From positions 78,883 through 142,882 of the forward strand of contig JAJCZF010000074.1 of the NCBI GenBank assembly GCA_029262535.1: DNA of 64,000 nucleotides, given 5' to 3'. This DNA is from Deltaproteobacteria bacterium (GTDB taxonomy: Bacteria; Desulfobacterota; GWC2-55-46; JAJCZF01). The notes beneath the pieces were generated by a model that saw nothing but the letters and a program-made list of their open reading frames with translations, ran no database searches and was not told the DNA's origin. The stretch's first letter is position 1; each line of letters begins with the position of its first letter. Positions 5,893-49,589 of the stretch are shown here, piece after piece. A program made the translations under genes and the position numbers.

Positions 5893-6070
5893 GACAATCC
5901 AAGGAAGCGCTGATCTATTCGTGAACTCGTATCTTGCGTCTAAAATATCCAGCTTCCGCGTTGCGAATCTTCGAAATAGCTAGCTATTCCGTACGATCCA
6001 CGCCTTGAATCTGAACATTTTAGCTCGCAACCTACTTCGGTCAGAATAAATCAGAACTTCCCTAATCTAT
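5893..6070. mobile_element. MITE-like nonautonomous repeat, copy A. About 170 bp with imperfect terminal inverted repeats (GGGAAG[C/T]NCTGAT[C/T]TATTC) and an internal 14-bp palindrome AATAGCTAGCTATT.
   Basis: Its reverse complement aligns at roughly 85% identity over about 165 bp with 48006..48172. Both lie in intergenic space. Confidence 0.6.
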
Positions 6071-6319
6071 TTTTCAATTCTTAAGAAAATTATTCTTTTT
6101 GAAGTATAGTGATTTCATGCCAGTTGGGTTCGGGCGTTGAGACGATATCTCTCACCTTTGTTTCTCGGCATAATCACGGCCTTAATAGCCTATGAGTATG
6201 CCGGTTTTTACCTCTCTTGACTATCCAATAAGGTGTTATTTCGCGGATATGCCTGTTACGGTTTTTTATAAAGTATGTAGGATTAAAGACAGATTGATTC
6301 TCTTTTTTATATGCGGATG

Positions 6320-6351
6320 TCATAACAGGATCGTAACATTGCTGTCATAAT
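6320..6351 (+). promoter_or_regulatory. Candidate Pho-box-like direct repeats (TGTCATA ... TGTCATA) upstream of the small-ORF/porin/pstS module
   Basis: Two exact TGTCATA heptamers at 6320-6326 and 6345-6351, in an AT-rich spacer ahead of a phosphate porin and pstS. The spacing is not the canonical 11 bp. Confidence 0.2.
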
Positions 6352-6407
6352 CTCGTAATGATGATCTCCTATAATGGTTTCAAACAAAGTGAAAATAAAA
6401 GGAGAAA

Positions 6408-6650
6408 GTGATGTCGACGGATCTAAAGAGTTTTGAGAGAGAAGAGAGAGCAAGAAAGAAGTTTCATTTGAATATACCTGCGAAATGCCCTTTCCTGGAA
6501 GAGGAAGAAGGTATTTCCTGCGGAGCCTCTGTGAACGATACTGTCCTTGGCCGGGATGCGCTAGTTGAGCGTTGTTATAGTGAAGAGTTTGATTTCTGCC
6601 CGATATTCTTGGCCGGCGCCCTGAGCGGAGGAACGAAAAGGGCGGCCTGA
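6408..6650 (+). CDS. Small hypothetical protein with four cysteines (80 aa)
   Basis: Good RBS AAAGGAGAAAGTG before the ATG. Cysteines at residues 27, 38, 56 and 64. It is co-oriented and immediately upstream of the porin gene. Confidence 0.35.
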   Translation: MMSTDLKSFEREERARKKFHLNIPAKCPFLEEEEGISCGASVNDTVLGRDALVERCYSEEFDFCPIFLAGALSGGTKRAA

Positions 6651-6711
6651 CCGACTTTAGAGATTTGAATTTATCAAAGAAGCAACCAACTTTAAAAGGA
6701 GAACTAAGGTA

Positions 6712-7911
6712 ATGAAGAGAGGAATAAAGCCATTAATATTAGGCGGGCTGATGCTTGCGGTTACGGCAGTCGTGCCGAGTCTGCCTACCGTGGCGGACGC
6801 GGCGGGAATCACCGTCTATAAGGACGGCGACAAGTATGTGAAGATGGGCGGACGTATCCAGATACAGTATCATTACGAAGACGAGGATACCGGTAGTCCG
6901 ACCGATAGATCGGTGGATGAGCTTTTCTTTAGAAGGCTGCGTCCCTATATAGAAGGGAGCCTTCATAAAGACTGGAAGGGTAAGTTCCAGTTCGATCTCG
7001 GCAAGTCCAGCAATGATAACGAGATAGTGATTAAGAGTGCCTATATGCAGTATACCGGCATAGAAAATGTAAAGGTAACTGTTGGTAACTCCCATACGCC
7101 TTTTTCTCGTGAGACTCTGACCTCTTCCAAGAAGCAGCAGCTGGTAGAGCGTACCTTTGTCGGAGACCATAACTACGGATCGCCGGACAGGAATCTTGGA
7201 ATACACGTAAAGGGAACGACCTCTGATAAGAAGATAGGCTGGGCAGTAAGCGCGGCCTCTGCTTCGATAGACCCTGACGACGATAAGCTTGACTTCGATA
7301 CCCCGGTTAATAAGAGCGACGACTGGAACGAAGGCTGGCTCGCCGGAGCAAGGCTCGACTTTCACCCTCTTGGACATCTTGCGATGGCCCAGGGCGACTT
7401 TAAGAGGGACGAGACCAAGGCGACCATAAGTGTCGCGGCCTTTAGCTGGAATAACGACGATGACAACAATACTCATACCGATGCGACGACAGGCCTTGAC
7501 GACGGCAAGGGCAAGCCGGATGTCGATACCGTAACAGGTTACGAAATAAGCGGCGCGTTACGCACGGCGGGTATTTCAATAGACGCACAGTACAATAGTT
7601 TTGATGTGGACTTGAAAGATAGTTCCGTAACAGCCGGTATGTACAAGGATGGATCTAGCAATCTTACAAGTCTCGCTATAGAGGGCGGTTATATGATTAT
7701 ACCCTCAAAGCTTGAAGTAGTCGCAGGTTATGAAGTGCAGGACGCCGACAACTACAAGACCGAGTGGACGAGAAGCTCCGTAGGCGCCAATTATTTTATC
7801 AAGAAGTATGATATAAAGGTTCAGGCCACCTACAGGATTGGCGAAGGCATAAAGGGCAAGAAGGATAACGACCTGAACGAGTTCTTCGCTCAGGCGCAGT
7901 ACGTATTTTAG
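6712..7911 (+). CDS. Outer-membrane porin, likely phosphate-selective porin O/P family
   Basis: Signal peptide, beta-strand-rich sequence and a C-terminal aromatic (…AQYVF). An RRLRP Arg cluster is present, as in OprO/OprP. It sits directly upstream of pstS. RBS AAAGGAG. Confidence 0.6.
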
Positions 7912-7949: not shown

Positions 7950-8984
7950 ATGGAGAAAGAGATGAAAAAGATCAGAAAATATATAACGGCTATTGCCGTA
8001 GCGGCGGCCTTTACCGCGGGCCTGACAGGCTTTGCTACAGACGCAGACGCGGCTAGAAAGATAGTTAAGGTAGACGGCTCTTCGACCGTCTTTCCGATAA
8101 CCGAGGCCGTGGCCGAAGAGTTTCAGATATCGAAGAGGGGTAAGGTTATGGTAACGGTCGGGGTATCGGGCACCGGCGGCGGATTTAAAAAGTTCTGTCG
8201 CGGAGAGACCGACGTTTCCGACGCGTCACGTCCGATAAAGGCCAAGGAGGCCGCGCTCTGCAAGGAGAACGGTATCGACTTTATCGAACTTCCGGTGGCC
8301 TACGACGGGCTTGCCGTTGTGGTAAATCCGAATAACGACTGGGTAAAAGAGCTAACCCCGGCGGACCTTAAGAAGATCTGGGAGCCGGCGGCGCAGGGTA
8401 AGATAACGAAGTGGAGCCAGGTGAAGCAGGGCTGGCCTGATAAGCGTATCAATCTCTTTGGTCCGGGAACCGATTCGGGAACCTTTGATTACTTTACCAA
8501 GGCCATAAACGGCAAAGAGGGCGCGAGCCGCGGCGACTATACGGCGAGCGAAGACGACAACGTGCTGGTTCACGGCATATCGGGCGACCGCTACGCGCTC
8601 GGTTTCTTCGGCATTGCCTACTACGAGAATAACAAGGACAAGTTAAGGCTCATAGGCGTTGACGACGGAGACGACTCGAACGGCAAGGGGGCGATACTGC
8701 CATCTATGGAGACGATCAACAACTCCACCTACCAGCCGCTCTCAAGGCCAATATTTATCTACGTCTCAAAGCAGGGGGCCGAGGCGAAGCCGGAGCTTGA
8801 TGAATTTATAGCGTTCTACCTTGAAAACGCGCCGGCCCTTACCGAAGAGGTCGGTTATATACCGCTTCCCGACAAGATCTATGAGGGAGCCCTGAAGAAG
8901 TTCCGCGCCAGGAAGACCGGCTCGGCCTTTTCCGACGGTTCAAAGACCGGCGTGTCGATAGAGGATCTTGTTAGCGCAAATTAG
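7950..8984 (+). CDS. pstS: Phosphate ABC transporter substrate-binding protein PstS-like
   Basis: Signal peptide. PBP-like motifs [10 protein letters not shown] and [12 protein letters not shown]. No pstCAB genes follow. Confidence 0.75.
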
Positions 8985-9080
8985 AGATAATATAAATCAT
9001 TTTTGTGGGGCTGCCATCCTGACTATGGATACTCATCCTATCCTCCCGGTTTAGAGCAGCTTGTCCCCACTTAGAAAAAG

Positions 9081-9115
9081 GGGGGCGTAACCTTACGCTT
9101 CCCTTTTTCTATTCG
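9081..9115. terminator. Bidirectional rho-independent terminator between pstS (+) and the convergent membrane-protein gene (-)
   Basis: AAAAA GGGGGGCGTAA CC TTACGCTTCCC TTTTTCT. The stem uses two G.T wobble pairs and is flanked by A- and T-runs on both sides. Confidence 0.7.
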
Positions 9116-9139
9116 GATAGTTTGATTTGCCGGAAAATT

Positions 9140-11335
9140 TTATTTATCTATACGTTTTGTCAGCGAACACTTGCTACCTGTAAGCTCAGGCTCTATAAAG
9201 AGATCGGCTATATAACTGGCCCCGCCGTAACCAATAAAGTGAGAGCCGATGAGTTCCTTTCCGTCGGCCTGCCAGTTGCTGTAAGGGCCGCTGCCTATTA
9301 CGGTACGGTCAAGCAGCTCTCCGTTAAAATAGAAGCAGAGTTGATCGCCGGACCTTGAGACTATCATCTCGGCCCAGCCGTCGTTTCTTCTTGCGAAGAA
9401 GTTCATCTTTTCAAGCAGATAGGGGTGTCTTAGTTTATATAGCTCTATCTTCCCGGTCGCTTCGTTTTTAAGCTCTACCTTTATCTGGCCGCCGATGGTG
9501 AGCAAAACCCTCGGGAAGTTATCCTTCGAGCCGACTATCTCCACATCCTTCCACGGAGGGGCAACCTTAAAGGGCCTGTAGATCCAGGATACGGTAAAAT
9601 CTTTTAAAAGGGGCGAGGCCGCGCCCTTGGCATAGGCCGGGTTCTTTATGATTCGATTATCTTTTGTATATATATGGGTCGCCCTTGTTGGAAACTTGGT
9701 AAGGCGATCGCCAAGCATAAGGTCGAGCGCGATATCCGCTCCGAGATAAAAGCGGCCCCCGTTAAAGGGGTTATAGTCCATCTTTACCTTTGCCGACGGG
9801 TTCTCTTTGGTAAAACTTCTTATGGCGTAGTATGGATCGTCGAGAAAGGCCATATGTTTATCGACCGAGTTATTTGCGATGAGCACATTGTGCGCGTTCC
9901 AGAAAAATACTGCCCCGAGGGCTGCGAGCATTACGGGCCTTAGGGTTTCCCGGTTAAAGCTCTTCCATAGCAAGGCCCCGGCCGCGACGGTCAGGGCGGC
10001 ATTTGGAAAGTAGAGATAACGCGGCTGGCTAATCAGGTATTCAAGGGTATTGGAGTAGACCCTGCCAAGAGAGATGATAGAGAGGTAGGATAGGCCGAGC
10101 CCGACGATAATGAGTACGATAAGGCGCCAACCCTTAACAGGCCTTATAAGTACGACCAGGAAGGATGCAACGATCAGCTTTAAGATATTTTGAAGCTCGG
10201 AAAAGACCCCTTCCGGCGGGGACATATAGACTATATGTACTATCTTGGTCTGCGCCGCTATGCCGATATTTTTTAATAGTAGGGAGCCGTAGATATTTAC
10301 CCACATGCCCTTTATCGTGCGCCCTATATTTTCAGCGCTCAGGAGGTCGCCGGTGGCCATCTTGTGGGTATCTTTTACCAGAGAGTAACCGTAGAGGGTA
10401 ACGAGTATGTAAAGAAGATAAACGGTCACCACACAGATGGCGGCCTTTACGATAAGCCCTTTTTGAAGATTGTTTCCTTCAAGGCGCAAGGCCAGAAAGG
10501 TGATGCAAAAGAGAGCTACCGGGGCGACTATCGCCGGTTCATACAAGAGTATCGATGCCAGTGAAAAAAGGCCTGAGAAGGCCATATAAGAACTCTTTCC
10601 CGTATCGGCAAAGCGGATAGCGAGTAAGACGGCCGCCAGAAGCAGTATCGCACCGCTCATGATATAGATATGGTAGGTCCAGACGACGGTATCAAACTGG
10701 CTCGGCAGCCCGATAAAGATAAGGCCGAAGATAAAGGCGAAGGCGTAATTTCGAATAACCCTTGCCAGCAGGGCGAAGACCATTAACCCCGTGAGCGCAT
10801 GTACCGCGATATTTAAAAGGTGATAGAGGATGATATTATCGGCAAGCAAGAGATGTCGAAAATACATCATCAGATGCGCCAGCGGTTGAAAGCGCATATC
10901 GCCAAAAAGTTCGAATAAGGAGAGCCGTTTTAGATCTTCAAGCGAAAAGCCTTCGACGCCCTGGAAGAGTTTTAATATATACCAGTAATCGCTTCTGAAT
11001 ATATTGGTGATTGTAGGATGAAAGAGCGCTATCGATACGGCCAGGTAGGTCAGGTAGACGAGCGCCGTATCGCCTTTGAATCGGGTTTTAGCGCTGGAAA
11101 GCCGCCCAAAGACCACGGCTGAAAGAAGCGTAACAGACAAAAGCACGGCCCATTGGTATGGAGGGATGGAGTGTGACTCGACAAGAGAGCAATAGAGCAC
11201 GATCAGGGCGATTAAACACGGGCCGATAAGAGTGCCCTTATTATCTTTTAATGCACCAAAGTCCAAAAATTCGTAGCCCCCGTTCTGTTCTTCCGTGTGA
11301 CAGGCCTTGTCTTGCAAGTTGCGACCCTTTCTCAC
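9140..11335 (-). CDS. Large polytopic membrane protein (about 12 TM) with a roughly 280-aa C-terminal extracytoplasmic beta-rich domain; function unknown (possibly GT-C-like or YfhO-like)
   Basis: 731-aa ORF. Residues 40-450 are hydrophobic and the C-terminal domain is soluble. No catalytic motif was recognised. Confidence 0.5.
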   Translation of the reverse strand: MRKGRNLQDKACHTEEQNGGYEFLDFGALKDNKGTLIGPCLIALIVLYCSLVESHSIPPYQWAVLLSVTLLSAVVFGRLSSAKTRFKGDTALVYLTYLAVSIALFHPTITNIFRSDYWYILKLFQGVEGFSLEDLKRLSLFELFGDMRFQPLAHLMMYFRHLLLADNIILYHLLNIAVHALTGLMVFALLARVIRNYAFAFIFGLIFIGLPSQFDTVVWTYHIYIMSGAILLLAAVLLAIRFADTGKSSYMAFSGLFSLASILLYEPAIVAPVALFCITFLALRLEGNNLQKGLIVKAAICVVTVYLLYILVTLYGYSLVKDTHKMATGDLLSAENIGRTIKGMWVNIYGSLLLKNIGIAAQTKIVHIVYMSPPEGVFSELQNILKLIVASFLVVLIRPVKGWRLIVLIIVGLGLSYLSIISLGRVYSNTLEYLISQPRYLYFPNAALTVAAGALLWKSFNRETLRPVMLAALGAVFFWNAHNVLIANNSVDKHMAFLDDPYYAIRSFTKENPSAKVKMDYNPFNGGRFYLGADIALDLMLGDRLTKFPTRATHIYTKDNRIIKNPAYAKGAASPLLKDFTVSWIYRPFKVAPPWKDVEIVGSKDNFPRVLLTIGGQIKVELKNEATGKIELYKLRHPYLLEKMNFFARRNDGWAEMIVSRSGDQLCFYFNGELLDRTVIGSGPYSNWQADGKELIGSHFIGYGGASYIADLFIEPELTGSKCSLTKRIDK

Positions 11336-11482: not shown

Positions 11483-11800
11483 CTATTTAAAAGATACCTT
11501 CGGACCGCGCCGAGGTGGCCGAAGTAATAAAAATATTCGTGATTCCATACCCAGCTTGCTAAAGCCGAAGAACTTCTCCACGCCGAAAATATAGGCGGGG
11601 GTAATGGAAAGACCTATAAGGCCCGCGACGGCAAGCTTAAGCGTTCTTCGGGGGCTGAATGGAGCTAATGAAGTAAAGAAGATTCCGAGCTCAAGCAGCC
11701 CGACTGACCGGAGTAGAGGCAGGAGCGCCATATAACGAATGTAACTACCGGGCTTGATATTCGTTTGATTTTTTGTTCGAAATTTGCCTGCTAAAATCAA
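11483..11800 (-). CDS. Doubtful small membrane ORF. Its 5' part overlaps a copy of the R2 repeat family.
   Basis: The 105-aa ORF has two hydrophobic stretches. Its upstream third coincides with the repeat copy at about 11775-11865. Confidence 0.2.
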   Translation of the reverse strand: MILAGKFRTKNQTNIKPGSYIRYMALLPLLRSVGLLELGIFFTSLAPFSPRRTLKLAVAGLIGLSITPAYIFGVEKFFGFSKLGMESRIFLLLRPPRRGPKVSFK

Positions 11801-11865
11801 AACCTTGGAACAACTCCAACAATACTACTGTTTCAGTGCGATTTTATCATACTAGGGCGGGGTGA
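11775..11865. repeat. R2 repeat family, short copy (CCTGCTAAAATCAAAA ... TGTTTCAG.CGATTTTATCA)
   Basis: Shares core blocks with 38556..38695 and 41476..41620. Confidence 0.45.
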
Positions 11866-27307: not shown

Positions 27308-30300
27308 ATGGATACGAGTGGCAGTAATCTCAAAATAGGACTCAGGGGTAAGACCCTCTTAGGGCTGGGTTTTTTGGTCTTCTGCGCGCTTCTCATCCTT
27401 GGGGGCACCACCTACTGGCACAGTTTTAAGGTCGCCGAAAAGACGGCCGTTGAGTTCGCCGGGGAAGAGATCGAGCAACTGACCGTCGGTGTCGGCTATT
27501 TGCTCAAAAGCTCCAGGGCCGACCTGAAGGTAATAAAGAGCACGCCGCCCATACAGGGCATCATTCGGGCCATGGATGACGACGGCTTCGACGTCGTAGG
27601 GGAGAGCACCATCGACGAGTGGCGCGGAAGGCTCGCCACCATCTTCGACTCCTTTATGAGAAACAATCCCGGCTACAGCCAGTTACGCTACCTGGATAAG
27701 GACGGTAACGAGATCGTTCGCGTCGAACTCCTCGGCATGGCCGCGCGTATCGTTCCTAGAGAAGAGCTCCAGAACAAGGCCGACTACCCCTATTTTACAG
27801 AGGCCATAAAGTTAGAATCCGGAGAGTTCTATTCTTCCGATGTGACCCTCAACCGTGAGCGGGGGCCTATTGAGACCCCCCATACTCCAATGCTCAGGCT
27901 CTCGACCCCCATTTACGATGAGGTTGACGTCGTAAGCGGAGTTCTCGTCTTGAATATCCTTGCCGACCCGATCTTCGACACCATCATCCCAAAGACCGGG
28001 ATAGAGACCTACATCATAGACGATAAAGGTTACTTCCTTCGCCATCCCGACAGCGCAAAGGAGTTCGGTGGAGAGCTTGGCCACGGGTTTTCGGTCTCCG
28101 ACATAGATTACGAGCTTGACGACGACGGTTCTTTCGACCGGCATGACAAGTTTGTGTACCACCAACCTCACGAGAACCATATCGAGGGCTTTAAGAAGGT
28201 CTTTTTCGACCCGTCCGACAGGACCCGTTATTGGAATCTTCTCTATAAGATTCCAAACGAGATGGTCTTCGCCAGCCTCTATGCGACCAGAAACTCGATG
28301 CTCGCAACCGGAATACCCTTAGGAATCCTGTCGATCATCCTGATTACATTGTTGGTCTCAAGAAGGGTCGTTCGTCCGGTTGTCAGCCTCTCAGAGGCCG
28401 CGCGGAAGATGCGCGCGGGAGATCTCTCCATCAGGGTTCCCGAAGAGGAGGTGACAGACGAGTTCCGCCACCTCTACCGTGCCGTTAACGAGTTCGCCGA
28501 GGCGCAGCAGTGTGCGGTCGAGCGCTTCGAGCGCGCGCTAACCGTAAGGACCGAGGAGCTTCAGAGGAGCAACATAGAGTTGCTCGGTTCTCAATCGAAA
28601 CTTGCCGCAAGGAGCGGGGAGCTTGAGAATCTCAACAGGGCGCTCATTTCTTCCCAGTCCGAACTCGATGCGAGGAACAACGAACTCAAAACGAAGGCCG
28701 AGTACGAGGGCACCATGACGAGGCTGATAGCCCTCTTTAACTCCTCCTTCAACGAGGAGTATGAACTCAAAGAGATGTTCTCCATCCTCGGCGAGCGGTT
28801 GCCCTTACCTTGCGCGGCTTTCTACCGCTACGACGAATGGTCCGGAAAAGCCGTATGCGTAGCCTCCAAAGGGAATCCCGAGTGCTTTGTCAGGGCCTTT
28901 TCTGAGGACGAGAGCCACGTAAACAGGGTCTGCGTCGACCTGAGGCCCGTGGTGCTTGAGGGTGACGAGATCGATTTCACCTGTGAGGCCGAGGGGTGTG
29001 AGGCCGGAGGCGCCGCGATAAAGCCCCTGGCGGTCTTTATCCATCCTGTGACTTATCGCGAGAAAGTATTAGGAGCGCTCGTAATAGCCTCGACCGCGCA
29101 GATGGACGATCTCAAAAAGGATTTTATCGAAAAACTCTCGATACATCTCGGCATAGAGCTTAATAATCTAAAACAGTATGCCGATCTCAAGGAACTCTCG
29201 GCGCAGCTAAAGCAGAAAGGCAAGGAGATAGGGCAGAAGAATATCCAGCTCGAAGAGTCGAACAAGATGAAGAGCGAGTTTCTGGCCAACATGTCCCATG
29301 AGCTGAGAACACCTCTTAACGCCATAATCGGATTCTCGGAGATATTGAAGGACGGGCTGATGGGAGAGATGGCCGACAAGCAGAAGGACTACTGTAACGA
29401 TATCTTCACGAGCGGACAGCACCTCCTATCCCTTATTAACGACATACTGGACCTCTCGAAGATAGAGGCCGGCAAGATGACCCTCGACCTTGAGGGCGTC
29501 TCTGTACCCGGACTGCTCAAAAACAGCCTGATGATCGTAAAAGAGAAGGCCATGTCTCATTCCATAGGGCTTGAGTTGGACCTGGATGAGAGGCTCGGCA
29601 TCGCCTCCGTTGACCCGCGTAAACTAAAGCAAGTCGTATATAACCTCCTCTCCAACGCAGTCAAGTTTACCCATGACCACGGAACGGTCTCGCTCGCGGC
29701 CAGTTTAGTTGAGAAAGACTCGGGCAGGATGATGGAGATAAGCGTAACGGATACAGGCATAGGGATATCCGAAAAGAACCAGAAGAGACTATTTAAACCC
29801 TTTGAGCAGCTTGAGGGAGCCATTACCAAGAAATATAAGGGCACCGGCCTCGGCCTCATGCTGGTAAAGCGTCTCACCGAGCTTCACGGCGGCACGGTGG
29901 AGGTCAGGAGCAAAAAAGGCGAGGGCTCCTCCTTTACCGTAAGGATCCCGTACATGGCGGATGAGGGAGCCACAGCCGAAGAGTCGCTATTCCTGCCGGA
30001 GAAGCCTCTCCAAGAGATGTCTAGTGAAAAAGGGCCGCTCGTCCTTATAGTAGAGGACGACGCAAAGGCTGCCGACATTACCAAGGCCCAGCTCGAAGAG
30101 AGGGGCTACAGGACCATGACGTCCGAAACGGCCGAGGATGGGCTTAAGGCTGCCGCGCTGATGCGGCCTGACCTCATAGTGCTCGACATCCTTCTTCCGT
30201 CCATGAGCGGATGGGACTTTTTGCAGATGATCAAGGATGACGATGCGACCTGTAATATACCGGTGGTAATACACTCCATAGTTGCGGATTCGAGGAAGGG

Positions 30301-32449: not shown

Positions 32450-35400
32450 ATGAACGATAATGAAAAGACAAAGGAAGAGCTTATAAAAGAGCTGGCGGAG
32501 CTTCGCGCGAAGCCCTCAGAGGGCGTAGCCGCGGAGAGCGACCGGGACGAGTATAAGGCCTATTTCGATTATATGGGTGACGCCCTGATCGTCCTGGATA
32601 TGCACAGAAGGGTGCTGAGGCTTAATAAGTCCGCCAAGAGGATGCTTGGTTACTCGGACGAGGATATTTCCGGTCTGACTTTTGAGAAGCTCTTTCCGGA
32701 ACGTGAGCATAAGAGCCATTATGCCGAGATGGAGCAGGCTATTGAAACAAGGTCTATCAGGTCTATGGATACTACGCTCATCTCAAAGCGCGGGGTGGAG
32801 ATACCGGTGCTTCTGAGCGGTTCCGTAATGCTTGACCGGGAAGGCGAGCCGTGCGGTTTAATCGGCGTATGCAGGGATTACACACAGATCAAACGGCGCT
32901 ATGAAGATGAGTTATTGAGATCGGAACAGCGCTGCCAGCTCCACATAGAGAGGACCCCTCTCGCAGCCATAGAGTGGAACACCGACTTCGAGGTTGTGGA
33001 GTGGAACCAGGCCGCCGAGAAGGTTTTTGGCTATACAAGGGAAGAAGCCCTTGGCCGACATGCCGACTTTATCATCCACAAAGATGCCAGAGGCCATGTG
33101 GATAAGGTATGGCAAGATCTTATGGAAAGAGAGGGCGGCGAGAGAAGCACAAACCTGAACGTCACAAAGGACGGTAGGACCATATTTTGCGAGTGGTATA
33201 ATACACCGCTGGTCACAGGGGGCGGCGAGGTGATAGGAGCCGCATCTATGGCCCACGATGTAACGGAGCTTAAGGCGGCCCAAGATGCTCTTAGAAGTGC
33301 CCATTACGATCTTGAAGAGAAGGTCCGGGAGCGCACCGAAGAGCTGATAAAGACCAATGAGGCGCTCAGAGACAGAGAAAGAAGGCTCTTAGAGGCCGAA
33401 CGAGTCTCGGGGTTGGGTCATTGGGAGTACGACCTTCGAGACGGCAAACTCTACTGGTCCGATGAGGTCTACCGTATCTTCAACATGGACCCTGAAGAGA
33501 TAGAGTCCTCTTTTGATGCTTTTATGGAGAGGATTCACCCCGAAGACCGGGAAGAGGTCGCCAGGGCCTACCGGGAGTCGGTAGAGAACAAAACCGTCTA
33601 CGATATCGTCCACCGCCTCCTGATGGAAGACGGAAGCGTTAAGTATGTAAATGAGAGGTGCAAGACCGAGTATGACGAGGACGGGATTCCCGTGCGTTCC
33701 CTCGGTACGGTACTTGACATAACGAAACTCAAACAAGCGGAAGAAGCTCTCGGGGAGAGCGAGGGGAAATACCGCCGTTTGTTCGAGAACATGCAGGAGG
33801 GTTTTGCCTACTGCAAGATGGAGTTCGATGAACTCGGCAAGCCGGTTGATTGGGTCTACCTTGAGGTAAACGACTACTTTGAGCTTCTTACCGGACTCAA
33901 AAAGGAGGATGTGGTCGGCAAAAGGGTCACTCAGGCGATACCGACAATCAAGGAAACACACCCGGAACTCTTCGACATCTACGGCGACGTTGCTCTGACC
34001 GGCAGGCAGGCCAGGTTTGAAATCTATTTCAAACCCCTGGAGATATGGCTTTCCGTCGCGGCATACTGTCCGCGTAAAGGGTATTTTATTGCAATATTCG
34101 GCAACATCACGGAGCGTAAAGGGATTGAAGAGGCTCTGAGGGACAGCGAAGAGAGGTTCTCCAAGGTCTTCTATGCCTCGTCCGACATCATGGCGATAAC
34201 CAGGGTGAGCGACGGCCTGATCGTTGAGGTGAACGATACAATGTTGAAGCTGTTTGGCTACGAGCGCGACGAGCTCGTCGGCGATACCACGACCGGAAAG
34301 AATCTCTGGGGAGACCCCTCCGACCGCGATAGGATGGTCGAGATATTAAAGAGAGACGGTTGTATTAAGAACTTCGCTACGAAGGTTTGCACCCGTAGCG
34401 GTGAGTTACGCTCGATTATCTTCTCGGCCGACACCATTACTCTTCGTGGAGAGACGCACCTGATAACGCATGCAAGGGACATTACCGAAAAGCTTGAGGC
34501 GGAAGAACGTCTCAGGCAAAGCGAGGAGAAGTTCAGGGGAATCGCCGAGAGGAGTTACGACGCCATCCTGATGACCGACGCCGGGGGCCATTATACCTAT
34601 ATCTCTCCGGGAGATGAGAAGAACACCGGAGTAAAGGCCGAAGAGGGGATTGGCAAAGACTTCCGGGACTTTCTGCCGGAGAGATCGGTTCCGCTTGCCG
34701 ACAAGGCTTTCGCCAGGGTCCTTGGCGGCGAGACCGTAGAAGGGCTCGAACTTGAGGCCGTGCGCAGGGACGGCAGGCCCTTCTTTATCGAATGCAATAT
34801 CACTCCGGTCTATCAGGATAATGAAGTGTCCGGAACGCAGATAATATACAGGAATATCACGGAACGTAAGCGGGCCGATGAGGTTCGAATAAAGAATATC
34901 GAGTTGGAAAAAGTCAACAGGTTGAAGGACGAGTTTTTGGCGAATATGTCACACGAACTCAGGACCCCCCTTAATTCGATAATCGGCTTCTCGGAGATGC
35001 TCAAGGACGATATGGTCGGCAAGCTAACGGAAGTGCAGAAAGGACAGTGCGAGCTTATATTTAAGAGCGGACGACACCTCTTGGATCTAGTAAATGACAT
35101 ACTCGATCTTTCGAAGGTGGAGGCCGGAAAGATGCAGCTTGAGCTTGAGATGTCCAATATTTCTGAACTGCTCAAGACCGGCGGGCTTATCCTAAAGGAG
35201 ACGGCCCAGAAGCGCTCCATAGAGCTTTCACTGGACATTGCGGACGATATAGGTATCGTCTATGTGGACCCGGTAAGATTCAAGCAGGTAGCCTACAATC
35301 TCCTCTCTAACGCCGTAAAGTTCACCCCGGACGGCGGAAGTGTTTCGCTCTCGGCAAGGTCTATCGGCGCGGATCCGAACAGGATGCTGGAGGTAAGCGT

Positions 35401-35623
35401 TACCGATACCGGCATCGGTATACCGGAAAAGGATATTGAGAGACTCTTTACGCCCTTTGAACAGCTGGAGAATGTCTTTACCAAGAAATACGAGGGTACC
35501 GGTCTCGGACTCATGTTGGTAAAACGTCTCACGGAGCTTCACGGCGGTACTGTGGAGGTGAAGAGCAAAGAAGGCGAGGGGAGCACATTTACCGTAAGGA
35601 TTCCATACAGGGAGTCACTTTAA
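32450..35623 (+). CDS. Multi-PAS (about 5 PAS/PAC) sensor histidine kinase
   Basis: 1057 aa. Repeated PAS/PAC blocks are separated by coiled-coil linkers. H-box SHELRTPLNSIIGFSE. The ATPase core is nearly identical to that of the 27308 kinase. Confidence 0.85.
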   Translation: MNDNEKTKEELIKELAELRAKPSEGVAAESDRDEYKAYFDYMGDALIVLDMHRRVLRLNKSAKRMLGYSDEDISGLTFEKLFPEREHKSHYAEMEQAIETRSIRSMDTTLISKRGVEIPVLLSGSVMLDREGEPCGLIGVCRDYTQIKRRYEDELLRSEQRCQLHIERTPLAAIEWNTDFEVVEWNQAAEKVFGYTREEALGRHADFIIHKDARGHVDKVWQDLMEREGGERSTNLNVTKDGRTIFCEWYNTPLVTGGGEVIGAASMAHDVTELKAAQDALRSAHYDLEEKVRERTEELIKTNEALRDRERRLLEAERVSGLGHWEYDLRDGKLYWSDEVYRIFNMDPEEIESSFDAFMERIHPEDREEVARAYRESVENKTVYDIVHRLLMEDGSVKYVNERCKTEYDEDGIPVRSLGTVLDITKLKQAEEALGESEGKYRRLFENMQEGFAYCKMEFDELGKPVDWVYLEVNDYFELLTGLKKEDVVGKRVTQAIPTIKETHPELFDIYGDVALTGRQARFEIYFKPLEIWLSVAAYCPRKGYFIAIFGNITERKGIEEALRDSEERFSKVFYASSDIMAITRVSDGLIVEVNDTMLKLFGYERDELVGDTTTGKNLWGDPSDRDRMVEILKRDGCIKNFATKVCTRSGELRSIIFSADTITLRGETHLITHARDITEKLEAEERLRQSEEKFRGIAERSYDAILMTDAGGHYTYISPGDEKNTGVKAEEGIGKDFRDFLPERSVPLADKAFARVLGGETVEGLELEAVRRDGRPFFIECNITPVYQDNEVSGTQIIYRNITERKRADEVRIKNIELEKVNRLKDEFLANMSHELRTPLNSIIGFSEMLKDDMVGKLTEVQKGQCELIFKSGRHLLDLVNDILDLSKVEAGKMQLELEMSNISELLKTGGLILKETAQKRSIELSLDIADDIGIVYVDPVRFKQVAYNLLSNAVKFTPDGGSVSLSARSIGADPNRMLEVSVTDTGIGIPEKDIERLFTPFEQLENVFTKKYEGTGLGLMLVKRLTELHGGTVEVKSKEGEGSTFTVRIPYRESL

Positions 35624-38176: not shown

Positions 38177-38399
38177 ATTGTTGCGCTTAAAAGTTATTGC
38201 CGGGAATCAATATTTCTTGGATCTCCTTTGAGGTGCGCAGGTGTAGCAAGTACCTCGCCGAATCCTTTAAAATCTGCTAAAAGTTCCGAATGGCCTTTCT
38301 TAAGCTTATCATTCATAGCTCAGACTTATCGATTTATAGGGTGGCTACAAAATTTTATCACAATCGTAAAGCTGAACTAGACAATTCATAATATCTTCC

Positions 38400-38546
38400 A
38401 TTGACTCGGACCGATTTTATCATAATTAGCACAATTTGGCCGACTCGGAAGAGACGGCCAAAGACGCCACAGCGTAAGCAGTTGTTTTAGAAGAGGAAAA
38501 GTGGTGGGCGGTACTGGGTTCGAACCAGTGACTTCCACCGTGTGAA
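38400..38546. repeat. About 145-bp direct repeat, copy 1. It carries the R2 tail, a roughly 60-bp tRNA-Val 3'-flank and a 45-nt copy of the tRNA-Val 3' half (38502-38546, minus orientation).
   Basis: Identical or near-identical to 41583..41715. The tRNA part is an exact 45-nt match to the 3' half of the intact tRNA-Val. Confidence 0.65.
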
Positions 38547-38555
38547 AATGAGAAG

Positions 38556-38695
38556 ACGTATTTTTGCAAGGTCATGATTTTATTCTGGTTTCCCCTTTTA
38601 ACCTATAAAATCAAAGCCTTAGGCCGATTCCAATAATTCCATAGAGTCCAGTTAATTCCATAGTTTCGGACTGATTTTATCACAGTTGGGTGCAA
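38556..38695. repeat. R2 repeat family, full copy
   Basis: Shares the blocks TTTTTGCAAGGTCATGATTTTATTCTGG, AAAATCAAA and GACTGATTTTATCACA with 41476..41620. Confidence 0.5.
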
Positions 38696-38759
38696 GGCGC
38701 TCGTTGAGATTCATTAAAACAAGCGGGAAAGAAAAACCTTGACAGGCCGTATTGAAAGT

Positions 38760-38778
38760 GATATTCATTATCAATATC
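38760..38778 (+). promoter_or_regulatory. Fur-box-like operator overlapping the promoter of the FTR1 permease gene
   Basis: GATATTCATTATCAATATC matches the 19-bp Fur consensus GATAATGATAATCATTATC at 15 of 19 positions. It lies 20 bp upstream of the ATG and downstream of a TTGACA -35-like hexamer. Confidence 0.45.
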
Positions 38779-38797
38779 AACCTTTGGAGGTCTTTCT

Positions 38798-40237
38798 ATG
38801 TTAAAGAAAATTATTTTAATAGCTTTTTTGCTTGTCCCCTTTGCAGCCCCCTTTGCCATTGCAGGCGGTGCGGATTGGTCATTCGTGGCGGATGAAATAG
38901 AGACCGCCTTGCATTCGGCCGGGGAAGCGTATGGCGAAGGGAATGTAATAGAGGCGCAGGACACCGTGTCACGGGCATACCTCGAACTCTTCGAGGGCGG
39001 GGGGTTGGAAGCCGCCATAAGCCTTCACATATCCGAGAGGCGTAAACTGGATATCGAAGAGATGTTCGGGACGGTCAGAGACGCCATGGACCCTGGAGGA
39101 CCCGTCTCCGGGGTCATGGAGAAAGTTGACCTGCTGGTCTCAACTCTCAAGGAAGTAGCCCGGAGCCTACCGGTAAATGGCGGACCAAAAGAGTCTGCGC
39201 TTTCGCTCTTTTTCAAGTCGTTCATAATAATCCTGAGGGAGGGCTTCGAGGCCATACTCGTTATAAGCGCCCTTTCGGCATGGCTTGTAAAATCCGGACA
39301 TACTGATAAGGTCAGGACCATTTATAAAGGTGCGGGAGCGGCCCTCGTAGCAAGCGTCATTACCGCTATTTTGCTACAGACGCTGATTAAGATAAGCGGC
39401 GCGGGCAGGGAGGCCCTTGAAGGCGTTACCATGCTCCTTGCCACCGCGGTCCTCTTTTACGTTAGCTACTGGCTCATAAGCAAGATAGAGATAGGGCGGT
39501 GGCAGAATTATATAAGGTCGAAGGTCGAGGGTTCGCTCACGAGAGCCAACCTCTTCGCCCTCGGGTTTGCGGCCTTCCTCGCCGTCTATCGAGAAGGGGC
39601 GGAGACGATACTATTTTACGGGGCCCTCTATTCCTCGTCCGGGGGAGAGAGTTCCATAATTGCCTCGGGATTCATTATTGGGGTTCTTGCCCTTGTCGGA
39701 GTTTTTATCATCATCCAATATACGAGCGTGCGCATTCCCATAGGTCCGTTCTTTGCTGTAACGTCAACCCTCCTTTATTACCTTGCCTTCAGTTTTGCGG
39801 GAAAAGGAACACACGAACTACAGGAGGCCGGATGGATATCCTCTACCGTTGCCGAAGGGCTCCCGACGATTCGCTTCCTGGGTATCTATCCGACCTGGGA
39901 GGGCGTATGGGTACAGTCGCTCCTCTTCCTGGCTCTTCTGTTTGCTGTCCTTTACTGTCTTGTTATAAGACCTTACAGGGAAAGAGGAACTCTCTCTAAC
40001 GGCCTGACCCATATGGAGCTCGACATCAGATCCCTCCACAATATGCTTAATTCCGTAAGCGAGCACGCCATGAAGGCCCACGGACTCTCAAGCGGGCGTG
40101 CAGACCGAGAGGCGGACGAGATAAGAAGGCACCTTGTACGCATAGACTCAAAGGTACATTTGGTGATGGAGCATTTAATGAAGCTCAAAGAAGGTATATT
40201 TACAGATACGGAAAGGGATATAAAGAAGGCGCCTTAG
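38798..40237 (+). CDS. FTR1/EfeU-family high-affinity iron permease with N-terminal periplasmic extension
   Basis: Two REGxE motifs (ILREGFEAIL and VYREGAETIL) in TM helices. Signal peptide plus a roughly 130-aa N-terminal soluble domain. RBS GGAGG. Confidence 0.75.
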   Translation: MLKKIILIAFLLVPFAAPFAIAGGADWSFVADEIETALHSAGEAYGEGNVIEAQDTVSRAYLELFEGGGLEAAISLHISERRKLDIEEMFGTVRDAMDPGGPVSGVMEKVDLLVSTLKEVARSLPVNGGPKESALSLFFKSFIIILREGFEAILVISALSAWLVKSGHTDKVRTIYKGAGAALVASVITAILLQTLIKISGAGREALEGVTMLLATAVLFYVSYWLISKIEIGRWQNYIRSKVEGSLTRANLFALGFAAFLAVYREGAETILFYGALYSSSGGESSIIASGFIIGVLALVGVFIIIQYTSVRIPIGPFFAVTSTLLYYLAFSFAGKGTHELQEAGWISSTVAEGLPTIRFLGIYPTWEGVWVQSLLFLALLFAVLYCLVIRPYRERGTLSNGLTHMELDIRSLHNMLNSVSEHAMKAHGLSSGRADREADEIRRHLVRIDSKVHLVMEHLMKLKEGIFTDTERDIKKAP

Positions 40238-40335
40238 AAGAAACACTTATTAATTAGTGGTTCGAAGCAACGAGCCCTATGGTATTTACCGGTTCAAAAT
40301 TATAATAACTGCAATCCATAAAGGAGATATAGACC

Positions 40336-41193
40336 ATGTACAAAAAAAGCAGGTATCTGGCAGTCGTATTGTTGTTGGGAGCGTTCGCAGTCCTTCCGTC
40401 TTTTGTCTACGGCGCTAACGGCGCTAACTTCGTCCTTTACAACCATCACACCGCCGAGCCGGGGGAGATGGAGATCATGCTGATGATGGATATTGGCCAG
40501 GAGCCGGACGGCACCAATTATACTGCCCAGATGGTCGAATTCGAGTTGGGGATAACGGAGAGGTTTACGGCTGAGTTCATGGTCGAGGGGCAGACGACCT
40601 CCGGTGAAGACGGGTATCATTTCACGGGTTTCAGGTTGGAAGGCCGGTACCGTCTCTTTGAATACGGGACATTCTTAAACCCCGTACTTTACGTAGAGTA
40701 CGAAGATTTGAGTGAGGACACCAAGTACGTGATGGAGATGAGCGGCAGGGAGGATGCGTCGGAAAAGCATAAATCCAGGCCATCGAGGGAACGGGTGCTT
40801 GAGACAAGGCTCATCCTCGGCCACGATATTACCGATAGGTTCGATGTGGCTCTGAACTGGCTAAACGAGAGCGATCTGGACACGGGGGTAACTGCCTTTG
40901 GGTACGCGGTGGGCCTTAATTACGGCCTCCGGGCTTTTGGCGGCGGTTCTTCCGGTCATATGGAGGACAAAAGCGAGGTCCATAAAAGCGTAACGCTCGG
41001 CCTTGAAATCTTCGGCGGCCTGGGTGATAGCGACAAGGGTTTGACCGCAAATGGAAACCTCACCCAGCACTACTTCGCTCCAAACCTTAAAATACACGCC
41101 ACGGAAAAGGTCATGGTAAAGTTCGGCGGGGCGATAGGGCTTACCAACGTCAGCCAGGATATATTCAGGCTCGCCCTGGGCTATGAGTTTTAA
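40336..41193 (+). CDS. Outer-membrane beta-barrel protein of unknown function
   Basis: Signal peptide, alternating amphipathic beta-strands and a C-terminal ...LALGYEF ending in Phe. RBS AAAGGAG. Confidence 0.6.
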   Translation: MYKKSRYLAVVLLLGAFAVLPSFVYGANGANFVLYNHHTAEPGEMEIMLMMDIGQEPDGTNYTAQMVEFELGITERFTAEFMVEGQTTSGEDGYHFTGFRLEGRYRLFEYGTFLNPVLYVEYEDLSEDTKYVMEMSGREDASEKHKSRPSRERVLETRLILGHDITDRFDVALNWLNESDLDTGVTAFGYAVGLNYGLRAFGGGSSGHMEDKSEVHKSVTLGLEIFGGLGDSDKGLTANGNLTQHYFAPNLKIHATEKVMVKFGGAIGLTNVSQDIFRLALGYEF

Positions 41194-41417
41194 GGCCTGT
41201 ATCTCTGCTAGCAAAGGCGAGGAAGGCCGACTCTGCAACAGGTTGCGTACTGACAAGCGAAGCGGGAAGAAAGGTCCTTGTCCGCAACGTTCACAGAGGC
41301 TTTCACGGGGCCATGAAGAGGGAAAAGATTATAGGTTTCCGTCTTCATAATCTTCGCAACGCGTTTAGTTCAGCCAGGAAAAAAGGGCTGACCGAAACGG
41401 CTAACTCCATGATTAAC

Positions 41418-41453
41418 TTGGTTCCCGGGGAGGGGTTCGAACCCCCGACAGAG
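41418..41453 (-). pseudogene. tRNA 3'-end fragment (T-arm, acceptor 3' strand and CCA) with no 5' half
   Basis: The reverse complement reads ...GTCGGGGGTTCGAACCCCTCCCCGGGAACCA. A T-stem/loop (GGGGG-TTCGAAC-CCCTC) and acceptor are recognisable. No complementary 5' acceptor strand lies upstream. Confidence 0.4.
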
Positions 41454-41475
41454 TGATTAAGAGGGGGATATCGAC

Positions 41476-41669
41476 AATTTTCGTAAGGGCATGATCTTGT
41501 TCTGGCTTCCCTGTTTACCTGCTAAAATCAAAATCTTAGATGAGTTCGAACAATTCTATAGAGTCTAATCCAGTCCATTGTTTCAGGCTGATTTTATTAC
41601 AATTTGGCCAATTGAAAACGATAGGTCAAAGACGCCACCGCGTAAGTTGTTGTTTTAGAAGAAAAAAAC
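41476..41669. repeat. R2 repeat plus tail, copy 2. It lies immediately 3' of the tRNA-Val gene and is part of the approximately 145-bp direct repeat.
   Basis: Aligns block-for-block with 38556..38695 (R2) and with 38400..38501 (tail). Confidence 0.55.
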
Positions 41670-41744
41670 TGGTGGGCGGTACTGGGTTCGAACCAGTGAC
41701 TTCCACCGTGTGAAGGTGGCACTCTACCGCTGAGTCAACCGCCC
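41670..41744 (-). tRNA. tRNA-Val (anticodon CAC)
   Basis: The reverse complement GGGCGGTTGACTCAGCGGTAGAGTGCCACCTTCACACGGTGGAAGTCACTGGTTCGAACCCAGTACCGCCCACCA folds into a cloverleaf. Acceptor 7 bp, D-arm, anticodon stem CCACC/GGTGG with loop TTCACAC, T-arm ACTGG-TTCGAAC-CCAGT, and an encoded CCA. Confidence 0.85.
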
Positions 41745-41857
41745 GTGCTTTATAAGAATAATATATAGCCCTCTGGTAAGTCAAGCCTTGCCCGCTCTTT
41801 GGCGACTCGTTAAGAATTATATTGAATCCGTGCCGCTTAATAGATATATTCTACCCT

Positions 41858-44306: not shown

Positions 44307-45869
44307 ATGAAGTTTTGGCGGAGCATCCTCCACCATGCAAAAGAGTCCCCGACACGGCTTGCGCTCGGTCCCGTCACCTATGACGGGCTCAGGTCAGCCG
44401 TAACCCGTGTAGTTCGCTCTCTACCCGATATGTCGGGAAAGAGGGTCGGCCTCTTTCTCGGCAACGGCCCACTCTTTGGAGTATACGATATCGCCCTTAC
44501 CCTCAAGGGCGCGGTAGTAGTGCCCCTTCCTGGCTTTTTTTCCACTGAACAGTTAGAGCATCTTATTGTTGATGCGGCCCTCGATACGGTAGTGATCGAG
44601 AGTGGTTGCGATGAGGGATTTCATTCGCTACTGGCTTCTCTCGATGTGATTGAAGCCGATACCGGACATCTTGTTTCCTCCAGTGAGGAAGAAGACGGAG
44701 GTGACGGGGGTGACGGGCAAGAGCTGGTTTTATCCGAGCTATCTCCTTCCACAGTTGTTAAGATAATATATACCTCCGGCACGACCGGCAGTCCGCGGGG
44801 CGTTATGGTCACTCTTGCAGCACTTGAGGCCGTGACCGAGTCGCTCATCGAGCGTAGCGAGGCGACCGGGAGCGATAGCCATCTGTCGCTCTTGCCGCTT
44901 TCGACCCTGCTTGAGATAATCGGCGGTATCTACGTGCCGCTAACCGTTGGGGCAACGGTTACCTACCTGCCCGCTGGTGGTATGGGTGGGGTTACCGCAG
45001 ATCCTTCGGCCCTTATAAAGGCAATTGAGTTTATCAGGCCTACGACCACGATAGTCGTTCCTTCGCTGCTGGAGCTGCTCGTGCGTTTCTTTGAAGAGGC
45101 CGGGGTCAGGCCCGAAGGCTTTCGTTTTATCGCGTGCGGCGGAGCGCCGGTAGCCGTTTCACTGCTTCTTCGGGCAGAGGCTCTGGGACTTCCGGTCTTT
45201 CAGGGTTACGGCCTTTCCGAGTGCGCCTCTGTCGTCACATTAAACGAGTTGCTATCAAACCGTATAGGCTCTGTTGGCAAGCCCCTTTCGCATGCCGGAG
45301 TAACCGTAAGCGAAGAGGGTGAGATCGTTGTGACCGGCCCGGCGGTTCTTGCCGGTTACGCGTCGGGAGGTAAAGAGTTCTCGTTAGAGTACCCGACCGG
45401 TGATATAGGCCGTTTGGACGAGGACGGTTATCTATATATCGAAGGGCGTAAGGATAATGTGATCGCGCTGGCCAACGGCAGGAATCTCTCGCCGGAATGG
45501 GTAGAGGGTCTAGTATCGTCCCTTAAATTCGTAAAACAGGTCGTCGTCTTCGGCACAGGCATGGAGGGCGCGGTCGCTCTTTTGGTAGTTGACCATGAAT
45601 GGCTAAGGTCGACTGCTGAGAGGTTTTCTGATAAATCTCCCGTGGAAGAGCTTGTTGATAACCCACTTATAATAAAGACGGTATTGGATGAGATAATAGC
45701 AGCTTGTAAGGACCTTCCGGACTATGCGCATATTCAAAGGGTGAAAGTTTTGGCAAAACCTTTTACGATAGAGAACGGTCTTCTAACCCACAACTGGAGG
45801 CCGCGTCGCAAGGAAATTTTCAAGCGTTACGAAAAGGATATAGAGAGACTATACGAAGAAGATCTGTAA
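44307..45869 (+). CDS. AMP-dependent synthetase/ligase (ANL superfamily adenylating enzyme)
   Basis: A3 core IIYTSGTTGSPRGVMVT, A5 GYGLSEC-like and A8 IGRLDEDGYLYIEGRKDN. Starts 3 bp after the upstream stop. Confidence 0.85.
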   Translation: MKFWRSILHHAKESPTRLALGPVTYDGLRSAVTRVVRSLPDMSGKRVGLFLGNGPLFGVYDIALTLKGAVVVPLPGFFSTEQLEHLIVDAALDTVVIESGCDEGFHSLLASLDVIEADTGHLVSSSEEEDGGDGGDGQELVLSELSPSTVVKIIYTSGTTGSPRGVMVTLAALEAVTESLIERSEATGSDSHLSLLPLSTLLEIIGGIYVPLTVGATVTYLPAGGMGGVTADPSALIKAIEFIRPTTTIVVPSLLELLVRFFEEAGVRPEGFRFIACGGAPVAVSLLLRAEALGLPVFQGYGLSECASVVTLNELLSNRIGSVGKPLSHAGVTVSEEGEIVVTGPAVLAGYASGGKEFSLEYPTGDIGRLDEDGYLYIEGRKDNVIALANGRNLSPEWVEGLVSSLKFVKQVVVFGTGMEGAVALLVVDHEWLRSTAERFSDKSPVEELVDNPLIIKTVLDEIIAACKDLPDYAHIQRVKVLAKPFTIENGLLTHNWRPRRKEIFKRYEKDIERLYEEDL

Positions 45870-46100
45870 GGATTAAGAACGCGGAGAGGGAACTTTCAAG
45901 TAACGAAGCTTATTCCGCGAAAATAAAACCACACCTGTGTGGATATAGAGAGATTATACGAAGAAGATCTGTAAGGCTTTAAAACGCGGAGAGGGAATTC
46001 AAGTAGCTAAGAACTTGCACCGCGAAAATTGGCCCCGTATACTGTGCGGCTGTGCGGAGCTAAAATAAGAGCACACTGGTATGCCACACCTGTGTGGAAG
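45835..46100. repeat. Tandem direct duplication (about 105 bp and about 160 bp units) beginning inside the last 35 bp of the ANL ligase gene
   Basis: GATATAGAGAGA(C/T)TATACGAAGAAGATCTGTAAGG ... AACGCGGAGAGGGAA ... CCACACCTGTGTGG occurs twice in tandem. The second unit carries an insertion of about 50 bp. Confidence 0.7.
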
Positions 46101-48995: not shown

Positions 48996-49047
48996 GCTTG
49001 AGTTTCTTTGCGTTTTAAGTTATTCTGCAGTGAGGAGGTGAGAATAA

Positions 49048-49589
49048 TGAAACTATCTAGAGCAACAATTCTCTTCTATGCTGATGAATATGACAAAGAA
49101 TTTAAGGGCAAAAAAGAGACAAAGATTGAGGATACTGTTAAGCCAAAGATAAAGAATCAAACCTACTTAACGAGTGAGGATTTAATAGAAATTGCTAAGT
49201 GGAAGTCGCCTAGGTCAGCTTGGCGTTGCGAAGATAATGAATCGGAATTCATTAAAGAAGTTACGAAGATTGCTTTTAAAAGCACTAATGAGCAGGTGAA
49301 AATTGAAGTGTTGCAGTTGTTAAAGGGGGTCCGCTATCCGATGGCTTCCTCTATATTGCATTTTAGATTTCCAAATGAGTACCCTATAATTGATTTTAGA
49401 CTACTTGAAATTTTAGAATTTGTAAAAAAAGAAGAGACAATAAAGTACAATTTTAGCCTTTGGGAAAAATATCGTAAAAGGATTGAAGAGATAAAAGATA
49501 GAACCGGCCTTGACATAAGAACGATAGATAAGGGCTATTGGTGGAAACATAGGGATGCCGGGAAAATGAAAAGAAATAGATGTAATTGA
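49048..49589 (+). CDS. Hypothetical protein (low-GC ORFan, Lys/Glu-rich)
   Basis: Strong RBS GGAGGTGAGAATA before ATG 49048. The surrounding 0.9 kb is markedly more AT-rich than the flanks. No recognisable motif. Confidence 0.5.

Follow-up and report, generated by a model that had tools for sequence, protein, structure and literature searches.

Which process placed a displaced copy of the 3' half of a transfer RNA (tRNA) gene, a second and different tRNA half and two iron-uptake genes together in a few kilobases of DNA of an uncultured deltaproteobacterium-like organism? The locus is part of a stretch of 64,000 nucleotides (nt) from contig JAJCZF010000074.1, which is called the window below. 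The window contains an intact gene for tRNA-Val(CAC), and the element in question, here called the islet, reaches from this gene to its displaced 3' half; the segment was taken as 38502-41744, with about 3.2 kb between the two tRNA-Val copies. Two copies of a non-coding repeat, termed D1, adjoin the two tRNA halves. The best reading of the locus is a decayed, serially integrated islet which resembles the cis-mobilizable elements (CIMEs) and is a known kind of genomic remnant and not a new system. With a probability of roughly 0.55, the segment is what remains of at least one integrative element that used the anticodon loop to enter tRNA-Val(CAC) by recombination of the tyrosine-integrase type and later lost its integrase.

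The tRNA-Val gene, its displaced 3' half and the outer repeat

The following features form the boundaries of the islet:

41670-41744, minus strand: intact tRNA-Val(CAC) gene
38502-38546, minus strand: displaced 3' half of tRNA-Val(CAC), from tRNA position 32 to CCA
41605-41669, minus strand: flank B, the 65 nt directly 3' of the intact tRNA-Val gene, homologous to flank A
38428-38501, minus strand: flank A, the 74 nt directly 3' of the displaced half, about 80% identical to flank B
38396-38427, plus strand: D3a, a 32-nt motif (TTCCATTG..GATTTTATCATAATT), outermost part of the left direct repeat
41573-41604: D3c, inner end of the right direct repeat

The tRNA-Val(CAC) gene is the sole tRNA gene found by ARAGORN in the window and reached 66 bits with the Rfam tRNA model, in agreement with a preliminary description of this DNA, which had placed an intact gene on the minus strand at these positions. 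The last 45 nt of the gene (41670-41714) recur at 38502-38546 with 45 of 45 positions identical. This displaced half begins at tRNA position 32, i.e., the first base of the anticodon loop, is located downstream of the intact gene and has kept its orientation. Searched as a 5'-truncated tRNA, it scored 19.7 bits and covered model positions 30-71.

Both copies of the tRNA half belong to an outer direct repeat (38396-38546 versus 41573-41714). A repeat finder reported 121 nt at 84% identity plus the 32-nt motif, and blastn reported 117 nt at 87%. Direct repeats of about 145 bp including a 45-nt tRNA half had been described preliminarily, which was right within a few bases. In the part of the repeat outside the tRNA, which extends for about 100 nt past it, 73 of 97 positions are identical (75%) and a 9-nt indel is present. 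The longer sequence is that of copy A, which has 9 nt more than copy B within 38420-38437 and there resembles a local tandem duplication (ATCATAATT / AGCACAATT). D3a is homologous to the right-hand end of D1, and a scan for the D3 motif gave four matches versus 0.14 expected.

Under equal neutral decay, an identity of 45/45 in the tRNA half beside a flank of 75% identity would have a probability of 0.75^45, or about 2e-6. Hence, the flanks already differed when the junction was formed. Judged from the sequences, such pre-diverged flanks would be expected if an element from a related lineage carried its own copy of the tRNA-Val half, this half being invariant across the clade. That the outer repeat continues for about 100 nt past the tRNA at 75% identity is likely because the downstream flank already bore the arm of a related, earlier element.

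A second tRNA half in the same register with D1

A second tRNA half and the copies of D1 are arranged as follows:

41419-41463, minus strand: second tRNA 3' half, from tRNA position 32 to CCA, Lys(CUU)-like or Asn-like
38547-38559: 13-nt spacer between the tRNA-Val half and D1(A)
41464-41476: 13-nt spacer between the second tRNA half and D1(B), in length and register as at copy A
38560-38690, plus strand: D1(A), a 131-nt non-coding repeat and putative attachment (att) arm
41477-41607, plus strand: D1(B), 131 nt, 75% identical to D1(A); its last 32 nt are D3c
11740-11862, plus strand: D1(C), a third copy, shorter by one internal unit of 19 nt and with no tRNA fragment alongside

A second tRNA 3' fragment had been noticed before and is real, since a search as a 5'-truncated tRNA gave 16.5 bits over model positions 32-71; its coordinates were given as 41418-41453 and are corrected here to 41419-41463. 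The T-loop motif GGTTCRANNCC occurs at three places only in the window, namely in tRNA-Val, in its displaced half and in the second half. The anticodon loop CUCUUAA and A73 of the second half point to Lys(CUU). A bona fide tRNA-Asn from a JGI contig, the only JGI match, has the same 24-mer of T-arm and acceptor, and over the entire half 39 of 45 positions match this tRNA-Asn.

The pair of D1 repeats was absent from the preliminary description of the locus. At both D1(A) and D1(B), the order on the plus strand is a tRNA 3' half, a 13-nt spacer and then D1. The two D1 copies are 2917 nt apart, and the tRNA breakpoints (38546 and 41463), both of which are at position 32, are 2917 nt apart as well. 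Thus, two tRNAs are joined, each at the same structural position, to one nucleotide of the arm. This shared register is explained by one site-specific mechanism, whereas random duplication does not explain it. We take the two tRNA halves on one arm nucleotide as direct sequence evidence that related elements switch their tRNA target and keep the arm. The register of two different tRNA halves with a hitherto undescribed conserved arm is a neat detail, which will not surprise a specialist.

Read on the minus strand, the complete order is tRNA-Val, the 65-nt flank, D1(B), 13 nt, the Lys/Asn-like half, 225 nt (41194-41418), the outer-membrane-protein gene and the FTR1 gene (both antisense), 107 nt, D1(A), 13 nt, the tRNA-Val half, the 74-nt flank and the 32-nt D3a.

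Iron-uptake genes between the repeats

Two genes and one promoter are found between the repeats:

38739-38778, plus strand: FTR1 promoter with a perfect -35 box TTGACA (38739-38744) and an overlapping Fur-box-like site (38754-38778)
38798-40237, plus strand: FTR1-family iron permease of 479 amino acids (AA) with N- and C-terminal extensions (PF03239, E = 8.7e-28)
40336-41193, plus strand: outer-membrane beta-barrel channel of 285 AA with signal peptide and the C-terminus ...GYEF (no Pfam match)

These assignments bear out the preliminary description, in which an FTR1 permease with a Fur-box-like operator and an outer-membrane barrel were placed between the repeats. Homologues of the permease with equal length reach up to 69% identity. 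The Fur-box-like site matches the consensus at 16 of 19 positions versus a best value of 14 in 20 shuffles. In six other contigs, conservation of the promoter region at DNA level was seen upstream of homologues of FTR1 or of the outer-membrane protein. From the site match and the promoter conservation, FTR1 is predicted to be under Fur control.

For the barrel protein, an AlphaFold model based on 30 homologues was obtained with a predicted local distance difference test (pLDDT) value of 83 and 12 strands. The best Foldseek matches of this model are 12-stranded outer-membrane channels, i.e., FapF, the COG4313 channel, Tsx and NanC. The family, for which Pfam has no model, is widespread, with 679 matches at E ≤ 1e-3. 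In an alignment of 30 members, about 35 positions do not vary, and the genes often adjoin those for Fur or FTR1. A periplasmic partner of the EfeO/EfeB or P19/FetP type was not found in the islet, where the sole neighbour of FTR1 is the 12-stranded barrel. Outside the islet, a gene for an MHYT-PAS-GGDEF protein follows on the left, and ruvX and mltG follow on the right.

A 21-nt repeat flanking both genes (at 38721 and 41260) was rejected as chance, because 57 of 500 shuffles reached its score. Scans of the repeats for σ70 promoters and terminators gave counts not above those of shuffled sequences.

Structure and distribution of D1

The D1 copies of the window are 70-75% identical. They contain an inverted repeat of 8-9 bp (TAAAATCA..TGATTTTA), which is intact in all three copies, and a tandem pair of units of about 20 nt (TTCCATAGAGTCC, TTCCATAGTTTCGG), one of which is missing in copy C. 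D1(C) precedes, by about 10-20 nt, the ATG (11731) of a small open reading frame (ORF) on the minus strand, which encodes a membrane protein (11483-11731). This ORF itself sits just upstream of an ORF of 731 AA without Pfam match (9140-11335). D1(C) ends roughly at the register at which the tRNA breakpoints are found in copies A and B, the register being uncertain by a 6-nt indel.

Searching Rfam with both gathering and E-value thresholds, tRNA was the only match and no family was obtained for D1. D1 as a structured RNA was rejected, as the RNAalifold energies for 3-4 homologues were only 0 to -4 kcal/mol, whichever strand was folded. It was also rejected as an element similar to miniature inverted-repeat transposable elements (MITEs), because the inverted repeat is internal and not terminal and flanking duplications are inconsistent between copies; by inspection, the candidate target-site duplications are TGCAAGG for copy A and GTGCCC for the homologue described next.

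An nhmmer profile built from the three window copies found one homologue outside the window, at 9598-9702 of the JGI metagenome contig L094 (equal to 1307-1411 of L095). An outer-membrane-protein gene with 70% identity follows about 300 nt downstream of it. Compared with D1(A) without gaps, the homologue has 66% identity over 105 nt, and the highest value among 2.78 million control windows was 49%; the inverted repeat is degenerate in the homologue. To its left, a palindrome (GGTGGGCAGTGCCCACC) was noticed, the first 9-10 nt of which resemble a tRNA 3' end. Pattern searches with D1 gave no match in the JGI metagenome collection (stricter pattern) and none in the viral collection with a second pattern. 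With another pattern, ten matches were obtained in the viral collection, all of which were discarded as chance since the similarity did not extend beyond the pattern. A blastn search of D1 against phages and plasmids had no match.

These results make D1 a DNA element that is conserved and non-coding; it is linked to tRNA breakpoints and, in two lineages, to an outer-membrane-protein gene. Most plausibly, it binds a protein. Its conservation, the lack of RNA structure and the internal direct and inverted repeats are what would be expected of a protein-binding recombination arm. Beyond this locus, the arm is of interest as a conserved, non-coding and undescribed sequence which recurs beside the same iron-regulated channel in another lineage.

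Relatives and the tRNA-Val site

MltG was used to find relatives of the source organism. The best identity was 53% in 185,579 species genomes (80 loci returned) and 55% in 5.8 billion proteins, which suggests that the organism is essentially without close relatives in the searched collections. Only in L003, L097 and L099 was tRNA-Val(CAC) found on the opposite strand immediately upstream of ruvX-mltG. In L097, this tRNA is 100% identical to that of the window, though MltG is 55% identical. The DNA downstream of tRNA-Val is different in each of these three relatives (MltG identity ≤ 55%), so the site looks variable, although such distant relatives give the comparison little weight. The first 8 nt after CCA in L097 (CTTTTCCT) match flank A of the displaced fragment and not the flank of the intact gene. 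This match would fit the fragment side being the ancestral chromosome, for which it is weak evidence. Downstream of tRNA-Val, L097, which is the nearest relative with a long contig, has about 800 nt without called genes (8400-9170). By reading alone, this region includes a candidate pseudogene fragment of a thiamine-diphosphate enzyme (GYLGSIGFSLPAAMGAW). If so, gene debris accumulates at the tRNA-Val site there, too.

The closest homologues of the barrel protein are 70-71% identical and the closest FTR1 is 69% identical, versus 55% for MltG. The higher identity of barrel and FTR1 suggests an exchange between lineages. Homologues of the barrel gene are found alone or together with FTR1 or Fur, and their chromosomal contexts, which have no tRNAs, vary. 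The contig with the closest FTR1 (L100; 69% on AA level and 75% on nt level including the Fur-box promoter) carries a tyrosine integrase at 5790-7061, 1.4 kb upstream of the FTR1 gene. The same contig has no tRNA and no D1. Between its integrase and FTR1, small phage-like ORFs and a truncated HAD/P-type-ATPase fragment are found, and the FTR1 homologue is followed by an ORF of 290 AA cut by the contig end. A D1-like stretch (CATG..CTTGTTCTGG) upstream of the L100 integrase was rejected, because its score lies within the shuffle null.

Origin of the islet

The anticodon loop is a standard crossover position of integrases. Islands integrated at tRNA genes are diagnosed by an intact tRNA gene together with a displaced 3' fragment that lies downstream and has kept the orientation, and anticodon-centred attP sites were found for 2083 of 3919 mapped islands, i.e., about half (PMC4383910). 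By analogy with these islands, the intact tRNA, the displaced 3' fragment and the anticodon-loop breakpoint of the present locus are a textbook integrase footprint. Integrase-less elements which retain attL and attR, with their tandem accretion, have been described under the name of CIMEs (PMC5704250).

The sequence shows the repeats and their register, the breakpoints at tRNA position 32, the functions of the genes and the lack of an integrase; from these, we infer the mechanism of recombination, the order of events and a foreign origin of the cargo. The arm downstream of tRNA-Val would stem from an earlier, related element, after which a second one would have integrated into the regenerated gene (tandem accretion). 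On integration, a tyrosine-integrase-type element would enter tRNA-Val(CAC) in the anticodon loop and bring a replacement 3' half, so that the tRNA gene at 41670-41744 stays intact, while the original half would be moved 3.2 kb downstream (38502-38546). D1 and the 13-nt spacer would represent the element-side arm touching the crossover point. The same arm on the Lys/Asn-like half would then be what is left of an att module of a sibling element that was specific for another tRNA. Later deletions would have removed the integrases. The cargo, a Fur-repressed FTR1 permease and a 12-stranded outer-membrane channel, would serve iron uptake under iron limitation. The islet is probably immobile unless a cognate integrase acts in trans.

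Several observations weigh against this history. None of the 38 window ORFs that were scanned gave a match to an integrase (Phage_integrase) or transposase domain, which agrees with the preliminary description as to the integrase, and no excisionase or transfer gene was found in the islet or in these ORFs. GC content (0.52-0.53), GC content at third codon positions (GC3) and codon-usage distance of the FTR1 and barrel genes are within the range of the other 38 genes; the search for atypical codon usage which the preliminary description had proposed for both genes, therefore, found them ordinary for the window. Their homologues are mostly located in ordinary chromosomal contexts without tRNAs or D1. 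No empty site was shown, the best relative having an MltG identity of 55%. By direct reading, the bases 5' of each breakpoint are not complementary to the 3' strand of the anticodon stem. A symmetric core is, thus, absent and working core sites are unlikely. No tRNA fragment accompanies D1(C), so that D1 is not solely an att arm. Finally, to place a Lys/Asn-like half within an element that has tRNA-Val sequence at its ends, one more event is required, which was not observed. The preliminary proposal of an integrative element which decayed or was serially rearranged at a tRNA gene is partly supported and is the best-supported reading, by the start at position 32, the orientation and the second half in register; an import of the iron genes, the composition of which is typical, did not find the same support.

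As an alternative, the preliminary description had named recombination among tRNA-linked repeats. The locus could do without any mobile element if D1 and the flank were dispersed, lineage-specific intergenic repeats, with ectopic recombination or local duplication at work, tRNA debris present by chance and native iron genes. The D1 copy without tRNA half, the lack of an integrase in the scanned ORFs, the native-like composition and the divergence of the repeats to 70-87% identity all agree with such an origin. We nevertheless consider it unlikely, because two different tRNAs are broken at position 32, both halves are joined at one D1 nucleotide with an equal offset of 2917 nt, and duplication followed by decay does not predict a tRNA half with 45/45 identity beside a flank with 75%. 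The same exact 13-nt register with two tRNA halves is left unexplained if D1 is a cis-regulatory module (e.g., an array of regulator binding sites) which travels with the iron cassette, its adjacency to tRNAs being secondary. D1(A) does end about 10 nt before the conserved Fur-regulated promoter region, the homologue in L094 and L095 is about 300 nt upstream of an outer-membrane-protein homologue, and the D3 core TGATTTTATCA is, by direct reading, a small palindrome loosely like a Fur half-site. However, D1(B) is located downstream of the cassette, D1(C) is beside unrelated genes, and D1 is absent in six of seven other FTR1 or outer-membrane-protein contexts, which makes a regulatory module improbable.

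The modules of tRNA half, 13 nt and D1 might also be live att sites, at which an integrase acting in trans moves integrase-less cassettes between tRNA genes. Cassettes consisting of the Fur-regulated channel with or without FTR1 would swap the 45-nt core and keep D1, and the whole would be an integron-like system on tRNA att sites. Compatible with this, though not demonstrating it, are the perfect preservation of the displaced tRNA-Val half (45/45), the conservation of the arm across lineages with an outer-membrane-protein gene beside it in the second one, and the two modules with different tRNA cores, a shared arm and identical register. Such a system is clearly improbable, since the arm copies are just 70-75% identical, the core is without anticodon-stem symmetry, no integrase was found in the 64 kb, and the JGI metagenome, viral, phage and plasmid collections yielded no further instance. 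An assembly artefact, i.e., a chimeric join or spurious duplication at the repeated tRNA half, had been named in the preliminary description as an outcome that would overturn the insertion. The source is apparently a metagenome-derived contig (146,860 nt), an identical segment of 45 nt could mislead an assembler working with small k-mers, and Logan contigs of the same sequencing run (SRR15505517) are fragmented in this region. Outside the 45 nt, however, the copies are diverged (flank 75%, D1 70-75%) and differ by a 9-nt indel, which no assembler creates; they are, therefore, not assembly duplicates. In addition, an independent Logan contig matches 40287-41617 at 100% identity, a stretch which takes in the outer-membrane-protein gene, the Lys-like half and D1(B). 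An artefact is, thus, highly improbable.

Further observations in the window

The ORF at 49008-49589 encodes 193 AA without Pfam match and has a GC content of 0.35 (GC3 0.37) versus about 0.52 in its neighbours, an SDR gene and a gene for an Rrf2 regulator. It shows the largest codon-usage distance of the window and may have been acquired horizontally. Two copies of a 57-nt sequence (45836-45892 and 45941-45997) are 93% identical and 105 nt apart. They span the stop codon of a gene for an AMP-binding enzyme and the following intergenic region, and a Logan contig ends at 45941. A direct repeat of 233 nt at 80% identity (29725-29957 and 35380-35612) joins the 3' ends of two hybrid histidine-kinase genes; it seems to be an ordinary case of paralogous HATPase regions.

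Comparison with known systems

D1 shares with MITEs and repetitive extragenic palindromic (REP)-like repeats a length of 105-140 nt, the non-coding nature, several copies and the occurrence in more than one lineage. Unlike these, it has no terminal inverted repeats, no consistent target-site duplications and no stable hairpin, and two of its three window copies abut tRNA halves at a fixed position. Compared to FTR1/EfeU loci, the islet has the same Pfam FTR1 permease and a Fur box overlapping the promoter, the promoter being conserved across homologous loci. It differs in having no EfeO/EfeB or P19-type partner and, instead, a small 12-stranded barrel without Pfam family.

In the tRNA islands collected in Islander (Hudson, Lau and Williams 2015, PMC4383910), the tRNA gene is likewise regenerated by element sequence and a cognate fragment is found downstream. 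The anticodon-loop breakpoint corresponds to the 'A' class of attP in the sublocation classes of Williams 2002. In contrast to these islands, the islet is small (3.2 kb) and has no integrase gene; hence, the integrase filter of Islander would reject it. Further differences are the repeat identity of 75% outside the tRNA and the second, different tRNA half inside.

CIMEs (Pavlovic 2004, Bellanger 2011, reviewed in PMC5704250) were defined experimentally in families of ICEs (integrative and conjugative elements) of Streptococcus, whereas the islet is known from the sequence of an uncultured deltaproteobacterium-like organism, has putative attL and attR sites and is without a cognate ICE or integrative and mobilizable element (IME). 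Both have att-like bounding repeats and no integrase, and the homologous arm, which flanks the displaced fragment left and right, is consistent with related elements having integrated one after another. This locus leaves the present view of integration at tRNA genes as it was and is mostly a tidy example, from an uncultured lineage, of how tRNA genes collect and retain the scars of integrative elements.

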